A stretch of DNA of 64,000 nt, taken from a virus. Positions 51,699 through 58,067 of the stretch are shown here, piece by piece (the stretch's first letter is position 1; the number at the start of each line of letters is the position of its first letter). The stretch is taken from positions 6,489 to 70,488 of IMG/VR virus record IMGVR_UViG_3300020578_000052, one strand, 5' to 3'. Under the pieces are notes generated by a model. The model made no database searches and was not told the DNA's origin. It saw nothing but the letters and a program-made list of their open reading frames with translations. A program made the translations under genes and the position numbers.

Positions 51699-54600
51699 AT
51701 GAGCAAGTTTCTAGTCACAACCCGCAATGTTGGAAACATCATGATGTCTTTTGACAACCTGCCTGACGCAGTCACGTATTCGCAACAAATGACAAGAGGA
51801 GGGACAGCGGTGAGAATCGTAAATACCCACAACCAACAAGACAAGGAGAACAACGTGAAGAAGTTCGTCATTGCCGGCACAGGCACTCGACAGCTCATCA
51901 AAGAACCTAAGGAATATCGTCACAAGGTTCTTGGGTACCTGGTTCAGCTTCTGGAAGGGGCTAAGGCAAAGCACGGTGCAGAAAACGTCTTGGTCATCAG
52001 CGGTATGGCCGAAGGCTTTGATGAAGCTCTCGCTCATGCAGCAGTTATTGCTGGAGTGCCGTTTACTGCAGCAGTACCAAACAAGGGCTACCTGGAGTAT
52101 TACTGGGGCAAGAACAGCCAACTTGGTTCATCGCGACTTGGACATGGCCTGGAGCTGCTGAACAAGGCAGCAGAAGTGCACTATGTGTGCAAGTCTCCTG
52201 CTTCACAAATGCCCAAATACAAGAACGCAGATGGCTCAGACAAGTGGGGTACTGCCAATCTTGAGCGCAATGAGTGGATGGTTGACCGGGCAGACGTCAT
52301 TTGGGCATACAACCCGAATAACTCATCTGGAACAAACCACTGCATTGCCTACGCCAAGGAGAAGCGTGTTCCTGTGTTTCACATCATTGTGCCAAAGGAC
52401 GATGTTGCGAACGAAACACCTAACAACCCTGAGGAGGGACCAACCATGAACCCAACACCAGCCAAGATGACCGCATTGGTCAAGCTTGAGAAGCTGACTC
52501 CACAAGAAGTGGAAGAGATCACTGCACTGTTGGAGAAGAACATTCTTCCACACCTGCAGTCTGACGTGTCCAACTATGCCAAGGGTCGTCAGCGTGTCTG
52601 GCTGCCTTACGAGGCTCCGCTGGGCAATCAGCCATTCACTGCTGGTCTTCTTGATGGAGAGGTCTGGCAGTGGATCGTTGACCGCTGTGCCAAGCACGGA
52701 TTCACAGCACAGGTTGCTCTGATCTCCAAGGGCGGAAACATCAATCCGCATGGAGATACGACCTATGCAGCTACATGGGCGATGGGATTCAATTTGGGCA
52801 AGTGCGATTGGCACATCCAGAATGATCGCAATGCAAAGCGCACACCTGCAAGGCCGAGCCAAGCAGATCTGGACGCCTACTACCAGAGTCCCACGACTAG
52901 CCATCTGTCTTTGAGCGGTGGAGAGGTCTTCAAGTTCAACTGCAAGCACGAGCATGCAGTTACGAATGCCGCACCTGATCGTTGGTCTATCAACGTCTGG
53001 GCAATAGCTGACGGCCCTGCTGCAGACCGTGCCAACATCGCACGTCGCCTGGAGCAGATGCTGGAAAAGCATCCTGAAGTTCAGGAGTTCATCGAGATGC
53101 ATCAGCCTAAGGGTGCAACTACCAACAAGTCCAAGGAGGACACAACCATGAATGAAGCTTCCTTTAAAGGAACATTCCTGTCAAACTTCTGGCCTGCCAC
53201 AGTCATGCACGGAGGGATAGTCTTCCCGACTGTAGAGAACTTTTATCAGGCCATGAAAGTTGACAAGACCGACATGGACACTCGTCGTCAGTTCCAGTCC
53301 CTCTCTGCTGCAGAAGCAAAGAAGAAGGGTAAGCAAATTGCAAAGCGCAAGGACTGGACCAACGACATGGCTTTGAATGTCATGCTGTACGGTCTGCGTG
53401 CAAAGTTTGCCCAAGGCTCTGAGTTGGCAGGGAAACTTCTTGCCACAGGAGACCAGCAATTGGTTGAGACCAATTACTGGCATGACACTTTCTGGGGCAA
53501 GTGCACATGTGCCAAGCATGCTGGAAACGGTGAAAACAAGCTTGGAATTTTGCTGATGCAAGTCCGAGAAGAACTCAAGAACAACGGTGGAGGCGGAACT
53601 CCCAAGCCCACCCCTGACAACCCTGAGGAGGGACCCAAGATGAAGGCTGAACAGCCTCAGAACAACGATTCGGTCAACAAGACCGACGAAAGAAAGGAGA
53701 CCAAGGTGAGCGGTAAGCCCATCTCGGTGGACAAGTGGGAGACGGACATGGGGCTCAGCGTTGAGCTCAAGCGGTCCGACGCCGACTACCAGAAAGAAGC
53801 AGGTCGTAGCTGGTTTGCAGTGGTGGAAGGCAAGGTCATCTATCCCAAGAAGGTCGATGGCGTCATTGACGAACTCACGGCAAGGATCTGGCTCAGCCGT
53901 AACGGTCTGTGCACCATGCCAGAAATCAACACTCCTGAGGTCAAGCCGACGGAGAAGAAGGAGAAGACCATGCAGGTCACCGGAACATTCACTCTGCCCA
54001 ATGGCGTCACATTGAACGCAGAGCAGTACGAGGCCTACGACGCCATCATCAATGGCAACGGCAACATGCTGCTGACTGGCAACGCAGGCACAGGCAAGTC
54101 TTTTGTGCTGAACTTGGCAATCAAGGAAATGCAGCTGAACCAGAGGTCTGTAGTTGTCACAGCCACTACCGGCATTGCAGCAACGCACATTAACGGCAGG
54201 ACGTACCACAGCGCGTTGCGCATGTTCCCCAATCTTGACGTTGATCGTCTGGTGGAAGTAATGAGCGGCAGTGAGAGGTGGATGAGAAGCATGCGAAATG
54301 TGGAGCTCATTGTCATTGACGAGATCTCTATGATGCACCGTGGTGACTTCGTCAAGCTGGATAAGGCTTTCCGGCAAGTGTTTGACTCAACCAAGCCGTT
54401 TGGTGGCAAGCGGTTCTGCTTTGTGGGAGACTTCCTTCAGATTGAGCCCGTGGACAAGGTCAACAAGGGCGTCAGCAATTTCGTCTTTATGACCAAGCAG
54501 TGGGGTGAAGCTGGTGTCAAGACCTACCAGCTCAAGCAGGTGGTTCGCCAACAGGACGCCTACTTTGCTGGTTTCCTCAACAATGTTCGTCAGGGCATTT

Positions 54601-57600: not shown

Positions 57601-58067
57601 CTGCCAACTCTCCGATTGTCAGGGATCTCCAAGTTCCTCGCGAGAACATGATCAACGAGACGTTTGCTAGGGTGTTTGAGTTCCTCAAGGCCAGCATTGT
57701 GGAGATTGAAGAGATCAAGGATGTCTTTGAAGATCGCAAGCAGGAGATGTACTTCCGCAATCTGGTGACGAATGTCATGAAGACCTTCTTCATCCCGAGT
57801 CGAACCAGCAAGGAAGGTCGTACAACTATCCTCAACAATGCTGCAGCCAACATCATGGCTCGTGTCGTTGCCTTTGAAGAGGCAAATGGCGAAGAGGCAA
57901 CTAACATGCACATTCTGCGTATGGCTCGTGCCTCTTACCTGCTCAAGGTGAACCGCAAGAATGCCAACCACGACAAGTGGCTCTACACCGTTACGCCCAA
58001 CAGCGACACTCTCATGACCGATTATCTCTTCCGTGCCATGGTCTGGTACCGTGAGAAGAAGATCTGA
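51699..58067 (+). CDS. 2122-aa polyvalent protein: YspA/SLOG, 2OG-Fe(II) dioxygenase, NADAR, PIF1-like helicase, RNA-polymerase-like C-terminus
   Basis: SGMAEGFD/RNEWMVD; HGD..H..R; LSNF..ENFYQAMK..DTFWG..GENKLG; GNAGTGKS/IDEISM/TIHKSQG/YVGLSR; GGADLDD. Confidence 0.8.
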   Translation: MSKFLVTTRNVGNIMMSFDNLPDAVTYSQQMTRGGTAVRIVNTHNQQDKENNVKKFVIAGTGTRQLIKEPKEYRHKVLGYLVQLLEGAKAKHGAENVLVISGMAEGFDEALAHAAVIAGVPFTAAVPNKGYLEYYWGKNSQLGSSRLGHGLELLNKAAEVHYVCKSPASQMPKYKNADGSDKWGTANLERNEWMVDRADVIWAYNPNNSSGTNHCIAYAKEKRVPVFHIIVPKDDVANETPNNPEEGPTMNPTPAKMTALVKLEKLTPQEVEEITALLEKNILPHLQSDVSNYAKGRQRVWLPYEAPLGNQPFTAGLLDGEVWQWIVDRCAKHGFTAQVALISKGGNINPHGDTTYAATWAMGFNLGKCDWHIQNDRNAKRTPARPSQADLDAYYQSPTTSHLSLSGGEVFKFNCKHEHAVTNAAPDRWSINVWAIADGPAADRANIARRLEQMLEKHPEVQEFIEMHQPKGATTNKSKEDTTMNEASFKGTFLSNFWPATVMHGGIVFPTVENFYQAMKVDKTDMDTRRQFQSLSAAEAKKKGKQIAKRKDWTNDMALNVMLYGLRAKFAQGSELAGKLLATGDQQLVETNYWHDTFWGKCTCAKHAGNGENKLGILLMQVREELKNNGGGGTPKPTPDNPEEGPKMKAEQPQNNDSVNKTDERKETKVSGKPISVDKWETDMGLSVELKRSDADYQKEAGRSWFAVVEGKVIYPKKVDGVIDELTARIWLSRNGLCTMPEINTPEVKPTEKKEKTMQVTGTFTLPNGVTLNAEQYEAYDAIINGNGNMLLTGNAGTGKSFVLNLAIKEMQLNQRSVVVTATTGIAATHINGRTYHSALRMFPNLDVDRLVEVMSGSERWMRSMRNVELIVIDEISMMHRGDFVKLDKAFRQVFDSTKPFGGKRFCFVGDFLQIEPVDKVNKGVSNFVFMTKQWGEAGVKTYQLKQVVRQQDAYFAGFLNNVRQGIWTQDMWDIVKFAMDRQKPENGVVSLVATNAQADSINNSKMAELPGKISKFTAVDRNPNKMINGQWQPDVAFWDKNTLVPKELNLKVGAQVICLLNHKDLVNGDTGIVLQIDEAKEAVQVDFNRLGVRWIAREKFHQGNKEVEYRWQIPLKAAWAMTIHKSQGMTLDSAIITADALFADGQCYVGLSRVRSLDGVYLESFKPEVVSANEQALKFYGLPGNLRGSDAELHSNMPKGDDDPDGDGGVFPVDPTPTDNNDGGGEISPVSTHEEEIMEPTPINNEVIEQVTETVEPQRFAKVDKSPDATSKTPKEGNKMIKEYLVETRLDQDIMVTSISRVITNDPEYWFAKDKTVVIEEVNQGSYHYALLEHIFGSKSFIVNITSWKNPLDGEPQVATMIKSGNETGPTDSIFGWADFDSETIIRVKDHGKKGWSNLSEFGLSVKNSDKMTKRLAELVRAARGYKVNVRGKDRMLKILVLTHQDILKAFPNLENEFNAEKAFDGVSVMALEKAKDAYRNNVHMSRTAMSKILRQMDDMEITNHTLRVLTNINGVAGEIKGNVLTAKRAKLNARLVELGLSDGSVSYDIVTSVDNFKNELGTDGTWEIITLEAHHGPGMVKTNDQTKAQFFGIKGIFDPKELLDAFQTVLDDMEQNIRDGKDIEWTTMLRNERAVTESDKFRKLRNAGVNKGLNKMYATLNDLELDLGVSQTLMFMRANSIKKMFLSDTRTDEYGTKSPNWQAPAFEKKSFLYMPWAYRAYVMTKEVIFLAGYDIDLQNTNCGYHKETQTFAMPGKQWAETCVKLGGADLDDEIMVHIRKIVELDGSERLAALLIRTPNDWAEFDIVNVKVPGPVFVNKLDMPTINMRDLCKFNQTSTAGQLPSKVNGSNRPKPAVWDWASTRYNYQVSMHNSGGVGGQVKTKMLRYAIYDAPFSTLPCANEDMIDAIQQCKGDVCDLRLLAEWSSQEIHNILTGAPMDAYWWYSRNMYSTAKALRIKNYTRHLDPANSPIVRDLQVPRENMINETFARVFEFLKASIVEIEEIKDVFEDRKQEMYFRNLVTNVMKTFFIPSRTSKEGRTTILNNAAANIMARVVAFEEANGEEATNMHILRMARASYLLKVNRKNANHDKWLYTVTPNSDTLMTDYLFRAMVWYREKKI

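Follow-up and report, generated by a model that had tools for sequence, protein, structure and literature searches.

In-frame nesting of genes is known in phages, with lambda C/Nu3 as one case. To judge from the available text of two reports, T7 gene 4 yields equal amounts of a 63- and a 56-kDa form by means of an internal in-frame start (PMC2910064), and endolysin genes with a predicted in-frame start in a linker have been shown experimentally to make two polypeptides (PMC9430671). Phages and conjugative elements also encode polyvalent proteins; the accessible part of their description proposes proteolysis rather than internal initiation for them, and the term ‘Shine-Dalgarno’ does not occur in it (Iyer et al. 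2017, PMC5512222). Here we describe a giant open reading frame (ORF) in which the two themes appear to meet. It lies on the plus strand of a 64,000-nucleotide stretch of DNA (the window; positions 6,489 to 70,488 of the IMG/VR virus record IMGVR_UViG_3300020578_000052) and encodes a chain of enzymatic domains ending in an RNA polymerase, with Shine-Dalgarno (SD) sequences and in-frame start codons at the domain boundaries.

Like the polyvalent proteins, the product of this ORF—here encoded by a tailed phage—combines many enzymatic domains, with nucleic-acid and NAD/ADP-ribose chemistry, in a composition that varies between relatives: unrelated domains share one phage ORF of 2122 amino acids (aa), and architectures differ across 63 homologs. 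In contrast to those proteins, the array has as its anchors a two-barrel RNA polymerase and a leader that is fixed at the N-terminus, and Pfam and PHROGs returned no peptidase, MuF or other known packaging anchor domain. As in T7 gene 4 and the endolysin genes, a strong SD and an in-frame start stand in a linker between domains, and the short product would share the C-terminus of the long one. Those genes have a single internal start, whereas this one has eight, and its relatives up to 10-12 by the rule given below, with a site at each boundary between cassettes that are themselves shuffled. In the literature on polyvalent proteins, phage internal initiation, ribosome-binding sites at domain boundaries, and two-barrel polymerases together with NADAR, we found this arrangement not described; the domain tables of PMC5512222 and PMC9503650, supplements outside the scope of that survey, might list it. 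The ingredients—polyvalent proteins, nested in-frame starts and phage two-barrel polymerases—are known, and their combination appears to be new. The best reading of the sequence, we suggest, is an in-frame array in which the tail of each cassette would give the initiation site for the next.

Strong initiation signals at the domain boundaries

From N- to C-terminus, the encoded protein consists of a leader, a SLOG-like domain, a 2OG-oxygenase-like domain, a NADAR domain, a small module with a PIF1/Dda-like helicase, a linker and a two-barrel RNA polymerase.

51699..58067, plus strand: giant ORF, 2122 aa and a stop codon, with 0 internal stops
51699..51854, plus strand: leader domain (aa 1-52), first in every full-length homolog; matches no known family
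51855..52445, plus strand: cassette S1, SLOG/DprA-like (aa 53-249); phrog_289, E 5e-14; weakly supported
52446..53147, plus strand: cassette O, 2OG-Fe(II)-oxygenase-like (aa 250-483); HxD at aa 351-353, H at aa 419, RWS at aa 428-430
53148..53639, plus strand: cassette A, NADAR (aa 484-647); PF08719, E 2.5e-23; phrog_1017, E 2e-36
53640..53969, plus strand: small module m (aa 648-757), which precedes the helicase in most helicase-bearing homologs; no known family
53970..55412, plus strand: cassette H, PIF1/Dda-like superfamily-1 helicase (aa 758-1238); PF05970, E 5.7e-37; phrog_325, Dda-like, E 2e-67
55413..55538, plus strand: linker segment L (aa 1239-1280)
55539..58064, plus strand: C-terminal QDE-1/RDR-like two-barrel RNA polymerase domain (aa 1281-2122), from an AlphaFold2 (AF2) model, Foldseek and VIA

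Eight internal sites combine an SD with an in-frame start codon; each is given with its SD, spacer, start codon, residue number and the isoform predicted from it.

51843..51857, plus strand: site 1, AAGGAG, 6 nt, GTG at 51855, residue 53; predicted isoform 2070 aa; SD duplex -8.5 kcal/mol
52430..52448, plus strand: site 2, TGAGGAGG, 8 nt, ATG at 52446, residue 250; predicted isoform 1873 aa; SD duplex -12.6 kcal/mol
53133..53150, plus strand: site 3, AAGGAGG, 8 nt, ATG at 53148, residue 484; predicted isoform 1639 aa; breakpoint of cassette insertions or deletions relative to loci L013 and L019
53624..53642, plus strand: site 4, TGAGGAGG, 8 nt, ATG at 53640, residue 648; predicted isoform 1475 aa
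53694..53708, plus strand: site 5, AAGGAG, 6 nt, GTG at 53706, residue 670; predicted isoform 1453 aa; GTG in 7/7 loci with the small module
53958..53972, plus strand: site 6, AAGGAG, 6 nt, ATG at 53970, residue 758; predicted isoform 1365 aa
55400..55415, plus strand: site 7, TGAGGAGG, 5 nt, ATG at 55413, residue 1239; predicted isoform 884 aa
55523..55541, plus strand: site 8, TAAGGAGG, 8 nt, ATG at 55539, residue 1281; predicted isoform 842 aa, the bare polymerase; kept in 10/10 resolved loci

A first-pass annotation, made from the letters of the window alone, had proposed these eight sites and a recurrent linker, ‘NPEEGP.M’. Every SD and start codon was in place, and the linker occurs twice, at residues 242-250 and 640-648. 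Among direct repeats, the junction itself forms the leading family (36 nt, 4 copies, at 52415, 53117, 53609 and 55508). Ribosome skipping of the 2A type, an effect of eukaryotic ribosomes, was set aside as a candidate, as the linker reads NPEEGP and not NPGP.

We scored sites by a simple rule, namely AGGAG or GGAGG 4-10 nt before ATG, GTG or TTG. Twelve of the 150 in-frame start codons of the ORF conform to it, compared with 5 in the two other frames together. Synonymous-codon shuffles, in which the protein and its codon usage are kept, yielded 5.78 +/- 1.87 sites (12 or more in 5 of 2000 shuffles), and shuffles of codon order 3.05 sites (12 or more in 0 of 2000). Since synonymous shuffling leaves every Glu and Lys in place, the sites exceed the background rate that these residues would produce, a concern raised together with the annotation. 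By comparison, only 11 internal sites are spread over the 15,290 aa of the window's 53 other ORFs that reach 100 aa, against 10 in the 2122 aa of this ORF.

The same shuffles bear on a reading in which the linkers were selected as peptides, be it as flexible connectors or as cleavage sites for a phage or host protease, and the SDs are a by-product of Lys/Glu-Glu-Gly codons. The linkers are indeed rich in Gly, Pro, Thr and Asn and recurrent (for example GGGGTPKPTPNNPEEGP), and proteolytic processing has been proposed for polyvalent proteins in the part of PMC5512222 cited above. However, synonymous shuffles of the very same protein keep only about half of the sites, the protein contains no detected peptidase domain, and among homologs the nucleotides are conserved while the peptide is not, with QGGA, MEVT and KEIP variants in place of KEG and EEG. 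We therefore regard selection for the peptide as a highly improbable source of the sites; cleavage and internal initiation could coexist.

The calculated strength of SD pairing sets the eight sites apart. Their SD:anti-SD duplexes range from -8.5 to -12.6 kcal/mol (mean -10.9), as compared to a mean of -2.8 for the 139 other in-frame ATG, GTG or TTG codons, only 2 of which reach -9, and a mean of -6.0 for 50 putative gene starts in the window. They pair as well as the best ribosome-binding sites of the phage and equal those of the capsid-like (-10.3) and sheath genes. The ORF’s own start, at -7.3, has the weakest SD of the nine, which fits the picture of a ladder of products. Local mRNA structure is weak around the sites, with a 60-nt minimum free energy averaging -9.3 vs -13.9 kcal/mol at 65 other in-frame ATGs (Mann-Whitney p 7e-4).

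Four further sites that conform to the rule, 51810 (GTG), 53097 (ATG), 53460 (TTG) and 56892 (TTG), fall outside module boundaries and were treated as background. Two of them pair strongly, 51810 inside the leader (-12.5 kcal/mol) and 56892 inside the polymerase (-12.7 kcal/mol); the TTG at 56892, probably incidental, falls within a motif conserved in the protein, MTKEVIFLAGYD.

Conservation of the junction signal among homologs

The homolog set comprises 63 proteins with the C-terminal polymerase, and DNA for 28 related loci, 11 of them distinct. Down to ~39% polymerase identity, the leader stands first and the polymerase last, with the cassettes between them shuffled, gained or lost; domain order, a check suggested at the outset, thus proved fixed at both ends and variable in the middle. 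A leader of ~45 aa with the pattern MKxYQVTD.STGE... is common to the homologs that start at a true N-terminus. The architectures include the following.

N-S1-O-A-m-H-L-R: this window
D-O-S2-A-m-H-L-R: homologs
A-O-m-H-L-R: homologs
S2-O and O-S2: both orders among homologs
D-S1-H-O-A-R: homologs
O-H-R: homologs
N-R (leader and polymerase), 904 aa: minimal form

In the DNA loci covered, an SD with ATG, GTG or TTG is retained at every cassette boundary, in some of them with the SD in a different frame or displaced. These sites number 2 in the minimal form, 6-7 in forms of ~1400-1470 aa and, by the rule, 10-12 in 2000-aa forms. Homology placed 61 boundaries in the 11 distinct loci, and at 53 of these an SD core precedes a start codon by 4-8 nt. 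Among the other eight, seven are displaced by small insertions, with SD and start a few codons 5′, and one falls at a contig edge. The observed count surpassed the synonymous-shuffle mean in 10/10 distinct homolog ORFs and lay in the top 5% of 500 shuffles in 8/10.

Closer inspection of the junctions pointed to the nucleotide sequence as the conserved entity. The residue that follows [K/E/Q]-E may be G, D, E, T, K, N, V, A, P, Q or I, while AGGAG or GGAGG persists. Ahead of the polymerase, the sequence is cct-aag-gag-g (P-K-E-G/E) in nine loci; L006 has caa-gga-ggt (Q-G-G), which places the same SD in a different frame with a spacer of 4 nt, the SD of L030 reads atg-gag-gta, and in L029 SD and ATG both lie five codons upstream. 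Boundary residues other than Met are Val or Leu, with GTG or TTG as the codon in 8/8 boundary types, five of which are homologous to ATG elsewhere. GTG accounts for only 11-32% of the Val codons in these ORFs, and at the 51 M/V/L columns inside the polymerase domain only 19/105 V/L codon types are GTG or TTG. Because the residues vary, the SD shifts in frame and position, and the start codons alternate among ATG, GTG and TTG, the alignments indicate that the conserved junction signal is one of nucleotides, not of peptide. Conservation of start sites at this level is what working initiation sites predict.

Internal SD-like sequences are said to pause ribosomes, and the in-frame SDs found here, which sit exactly at domain boundaries, might slow elongating ribosomes to assist folding, with no initiation involved. 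Pausing does not need a start codon, yet one is present 4-9 nt on at all resolved boundaries, and only as ATG, GTG or TTG; the spacing is the optimum for initiation. We give little credence to pausing as the explanation of the sites.

Four database proteins begin at junction Mets (P0012, P0016, P0039 and P0051), two of them, P0051 and P0039, at the two last sites. These could be split forms, or else truncations at contig edges.

Exchange of cassettes at the junction start codon

The units between the junctions correspond to whole genes. The phrog_1017 and phrog_325 envelopes start at aa 482 and 757, no more than 2 residues from sites 484 and 758. Free-standing homologs of cassette O, 176-201 aa long and located on contigs of up to 4.6 Mb, align their own Met to the junction Met, and by comparison with them the fused cassette has an extra tail of ~35 aa that ends in the SD.

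Relatives with a different set of cassettes reveal where the array breaks. In L013, which is 88-93% identical, the NADAR unit (53148-53639; 492 nt, beginning with its ATG and ending one base short of the next ATG) is cleanly missing, and the resulting junction unites the left side of the window’s junction between O and A, including the SD, with the right side of the junction between A and m. In L019, a second SLOG-type cassette (S2) is inserted at the ATG of site 3, 53148. The SD-bearing tail remains with the upstream cassette: O always ends in ...KSKEDTT (AAGGAGGACACAACC), whether NADAR, SLOG or the small module follows. As the tail stays with the preceding cassette, the unit is composed of start, domain and SD-bearing tail. 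The cassette joints can thus be read from these comparisons as recombination breakpoints, with the breaks exactly at the junction ATG.

Breakage at these points suggests an alternative in which the junctions are recombination joints, footprints of captured genes that retain a neighbour’s SD, with SD-ATG acting as the microhomology for exchange and essentially only the full-length protein being made. Consistent with it, cassette insertions and deletions between close relatives break at the junction ATG, the junction is the top direct-repeat family of the ORF, cassette order is highly variable and free-standing homologs of cassette O exist. On the other hand, a motif of 5-8 nt in fast-evolving linkers would decay without selection, yet it is kept to ~39% polymerase identity, and the changes of frame or position in L006, L029 and L030 abolish microhomology but leave an initiation site in place. 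The start codons vary only within the set ATG, GTG and TTG, and sites this strong and unstructured are expected to load ribosomes whatever their origin. We consider it unlikely that the junctions are joints and nothing else.

As for how the array arose, the first-pass annotation had invoked an operon fused by the loss of stop codons. The part of this claim that stands is the layout: the cassettes equal entire genes, and the upstream unit carries the SD at its 3′ end, the position expected in a tight operon. The unfused arrangement that it implies did not turn up: the 11 distinct DNA loci contain 0 stop codons at cassette boundaries, and beside the minimal forms there is no separate NADAR, helicase or SLOG gene, the neighbours being polynucleotide kinase/phosphatase, LysM, PcfJ-like and unknown genes. 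On the sequence, a fused operon is a plausible origin, and the data agree with an in-frame cassette array that is old and dynamic and is bounded by a fixed leader and a fixed polymerase.

Four of the junction SDs (52430-52437, 53624-53631, 55400-55407 and 55523-55530) read T(A/G)AGGAGG, words that hold TAA or TGA in the -1 frame, 10-13 nt 5′ of the next start, a feature that may be set beside an origin by operon fusion. A ribosome that had slipped to -1 upstream could terminate there and reinitiate.

A model of nested expression

We propose that the gene encodes a modular (‘polyvalent’) phage RNA polymerase, with a fixed leader of ~50 aa, variable in-frame whole-gene cassettes and a fixed C-terminal polymerase. 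The tail of each cassette ends in a strong SD and would so complete the initiation region of the next, and cassettes are gained, lost and reordered through recombination that breaks at the junction ATG. Ribosomes would load at the internal sites as well as at the first ATG, such that one mRNA would give rise to the 2122-aa form and up to eight N-terminally shortened isoforms of 2070, 1873, 1639, 1475, 1453, 1365, 884 and 842 aa. As the ORF has no stops, every product of an internal start would carry the polymerase; this would be the most abundant part, the accessory enzymes would be tethered to it in graded, smaller amounts, and the leader and the distal enzymes would be the least abundant. 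On balance, we think it probable that ribosomes initiate at the joints and produce this ladder of co-C-terminal isoforms dominated by the polymerase. The T7 gene 4 and endolysin precedents support the step from sequence to product.

Several observations weigh against the proposal. Internal initiation is read from the sequence, and the duplex energies assume a generic bacterial anti-SD in place of the host's own. With ATG as the only start codon, the excess over synonymous shuffles is modest (7 sites vs 3.90, with 7 reached in 45 of 2000; codon-order shuffles gave 1.55, with 7 reached in 4 of 2000). Two homolog ORFs, L002 (189/500) and L021 (154/500), show no significant excess, and the homolog ORFs are related, so that their counts are not independent, uniform as their direction is. 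The weak mRNA structure could merely reflect the purine- and A/C-rich composition of the linkers. A strict SD stands before only 9 of the 54 starts of longest ORFs in the window; the phage has many genes that begin without one. SD 5-mers are only marginally depleted inside the domains (16 vs 22.8 expected; 16 or fewer in 51 of 1000 shuffles), and avoidance of SDs in the host is for this reason not clearly strong. Finally, the junctions double as recombination joints, and this role by itself could account for some of their similarity.

A bolder version of the model, to us possible but doubtful, would see the gene as a self-expressing in-frame cassette array, an analogue of the integron at the level of protein. 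An enzyme gene inserted at a junction ATG would at once be fused to the polymerase and receive a ribosome entry site from the upstream tail. The leader, a possible packaging or targeting signal, would be present only on the full-length form, an injected or localised polyvalent polymerase, with the internal forms, down to 842 aa, representing free polymerase. Separate virion and non-virion RNA polymerase genes meet in other phages the needs that the proposed ladder would split. By analogy, gene-cassette arrays of integrons are likewise ordered, swappable whole-gene units with fixed ends and precise boundaries; here, in contrast, there is one reading frame without stops, the joints are SD-ATG, and no integrase or attC-like site was seen.

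The C-terminal RNA polymerase domain

An AF2 model of the C-terminal domain, built from a 14-sequence alignment (pLDDT 80, pTM 0.74), matched best the maize polymerase ZmRDR2 (Z 11.6 over 581 residues, VIA), followed by QDE-1 (Z 8.9 over 612 residues; Foldseek E 8e-5). Lower scores, accompanied by Foldseek matches, were obtained for the phage polymerases Thermus phage P74 gp62 (Z 8.5), P23-45 gp96 (Z 6.7) and crAss-like phi14:2 gp66 (Z 4.9), with unrelated structures at Z 5 or below. In a library of viral structures, the best matches were two uncharacterised proteins of uncultured tailed phages (TM 0.75 and 0.71). As modelled, the C-terminal domain has the single-chain two-barrel RNA polymerase fold of the QDE-1/RDR type, in keeping with its initial designation as ‘polymerase-like’. 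By sequence, the polymerase profile drew one chance row from PDB (E 0.86) and no family match.

57000..57023, plus strand: putative catalytic loop GGADLDDE (aa 1768-1775), whose G, G, D, D and D do not vary across the 14 aligned sequences

In this loop, D1771, D1773 and D1774 are invariant and E1775 is at least 90% conserved, a pattern that, as read from the alignment, fits DxDxE or DxDD. The accessible text of PMC7824862 gives a DxDxD metal-binding signature for QDE-1/RDR/YonO-type polymerases, and the loop is the likely metal site, in what would be a variant of that superfamily signature. The family is rare, with 56 cluster representatives among 1.84 billion, and even members at ~30% identity are fused to NADAR, PIF1 or DUF4326.

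The fold class is common to the phage single-chain two-barrel RNA polymerases phi14:2 gp66 (6vr4), the tape-measure-fused enzyme of P23-45 (8h2n), and P74 gp62 and P32 gp64 (8f5m, 8f72); YonO-like enzymes are further phage examples in the accessible text (PMC7824862). The polymerases of phi14:2 and P23-45 are, as far as the available descriptions go, virion enzymes that are packaged and injected, and likewise embedded in giant multi-domain proteins. No sequence similarity to the phi14:2, P23-45 or P74/P32 enzymes was detectable in PDB searches, and the RNA-dependent RNA polymerases (RdRPs) of eukaryotes are structurally closer. In contrast to those phage polymerases, the fusion partners here are a helicase and NAD/ADP-ribose-type enzymes, and the gene stands among recombination and repair genes. 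QDE-1 and RDR2, eukaryotic RNA-silencing polymerases, share only ~10% sequence identity with this phage protein, whose acidic loop reads DLDDE, not plain DxDxD. QDE-1 acts with a DNA helicase and RPA on single-stranded DNA, according to the available part of PMC2950127, a partnership echoed by the helicase fused here. By analogy, the fused 5′-3′-type helicase could feed single-stranded template to the polymerase.

Accessory domains

Among the accessory domains named in the first-pass annotation, NADAR and the helicase were clear, with the E-values listed above; the PF08719 match covers aa 492-627 (83.6 bits vs a cut-off of 35.1) and the PF05970 match aa 757-1181 (127.9 bits vs a cut-off of 25.9), with a Walker A motif, GNAGTGKS, from aa 794. 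The SLOG assignment held in part. It agrees with the phrog_289 match and with ~31% identity of S1 to the S2 cassettes of relatives, for which precomputed tables list PF02481 and PF06908, but PF02481 itself stayed below threshold in S1 (E 6.7e-5; 22.6 bits vs a gathering threshold of 29.6). Similarly, the 2OG-Fe(II) designation of cassette O is backed by the pattern HxD...H...RxS, in which H351, D353, H419 and R428 are invariant or nearly so, and by a protein-atlas lead, whereas PF13640 matched only at E 0.066, and an AlphaFold model from a 7-sequence alignment (pLDDT 54) was too poor for fold comparison. 2OG-Fe(II) oxygenases combine an HxD...H iron triad with a 2OG-binding Arg in a jelly-roll fold; H351, D353 and H419 are candidates for the triad, and R428 for the Arg. 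By sequence, cassette O had no match in PDB. The leader has no Pfam match, and its best protein-atlas score, 0.76, was not usable.

SLOG, NADAR and DUF4326 fusions in large phages belong, in the available parts of PMC9503650 and PMC7824862, to a NAD/ADP-ribose counter-defence set. The NADAR, SLOG and DUF4326 cassettes may, by analogy, belong to the same set; the function of the whole protein is less certain.

Integrity and genomic context of the locus

The source is a 70.5-kb IMG/VR virus record, about one third complete by CheckV. Identical (100%) copies of the ORF are found on two further metagenome contigs, L011 and L012. In four public lake-water DNA runs, contigs span the ORF with 18 substitutions and 0 indels, and one contig covers 51699-56923. 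None of the 18 variable positions falls within the eight junction windows, against ~0.6 expected, too few to be informative. The gene order flanking the ORF is the same in relatives (protease, UvsX, ..., polymerase, ..., 344-aa ORF). Given the identical copies, the indel-free contigs and the shared gene order, the giant ORF is not an assembly artefact. All 24 sequencing runs listed with the sequence are DNA, none RNA. The annotated phages gave no DNA match to the window and no protein match to the polymerase domain; a single-protein scan of IMG/VR was without matches, and an alignment-based scan found the relatives.

Window positions 1-44.5 kb hold a minus-strand structural block of sheath, capsid, portal, terminase and tail fibre genes, followed by a plus-strand block with UvsX-like recombinase and polynucleotide-kinase-like genes. 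The giant ORF has recombination and repair genes as neighbours and lies outside the structural block.

51576..51607, plus strand: strong terminator-like hairpin with a 14-bp stem, then a T run, ~90 nt 5′ of the giant ORF

The hairpin suggests that the giant gene begins its own transcription unit. Internal promoters were rejected as a candidate, with 3 sigma-70-like sites found vs 3.0 expected.

GC content rises from ~36% to ~50% near 48 kb (window 48000-64000 vs 1-47000). The gene order kept in relatives argues against an assembly chimera as the cause. The window shows two codon regimes, the giant ORF having a third-position GC content (GC3) of 0.65 and an AAG/(AAG+AAA) fraction of 0.93, and its neighbours a GC3 of 0.53, as against 0.26 and an AAG fraction of 0.33 in 13 long structural and replication genes.

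Directly 3′ of the giant ORF, 58068-58871 is GC-rich, with short CTCG/GCTCG-type repeats and without a convincing long ORF. It is 88% identical to L013 and ~75-78% to L014 and L019, and could be a structured RNA or an unusual gene. Between the kinase-like gene and the giant ORF, L013 (352-1917) carries two ORFs of 196-200 aa, and the window (50650-51699) short ORFs only; L013 1349-2008 matches window 48745-49433, indicating a local rearrangement. Further downstream, 62848-62920 (plus strand) is a borderline Rfam tmRNA match (47.3 bits vs a gathering score of 47.0) that joins only the two ends of the model, the tRNA-like domain; ARAGORN found 0 tRNA or tmRNA genes in the window, and the match is also absent from the loci of four relatives. 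Inside the structural block, a tryptophan-halogenase-like gene (13456-15567, minus strand; phrog_2928, E 6e-104) adjoins a separate 2OG-Fe(II) oxygenase gene (phrog_61).

Implications

If the internal sites fire, this gene would have eight or more nested in-frame starts, compared with one in the known cases, and we know of no more extensive nested in-frame initiation in a bacterial or phage gene. It would also offer a simple means of setting graded amounts of tethered enzymes from one mRNA, and internal initiation would be an alternative to proteolysis for obtaining several products from a polyvalent protein. The locus shows how polyvalent proteins may be assembled and rearranged, namely from whole-gene units whose tails carry the ribosome-binding site of the next unit, with crossovers at the start codon. 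It further defines a rare, uncharacterised family of phage RNA polymerases, whose nearest solved relatives, as modelled, are the eukaryotic RNA-silencing polymerases. The fusion of such a polymerase to a 5′-3′-type helicase and NAD/ADP-ribose-type enzymes is relevant to the origin of RdRPs and to phage counter-defence.

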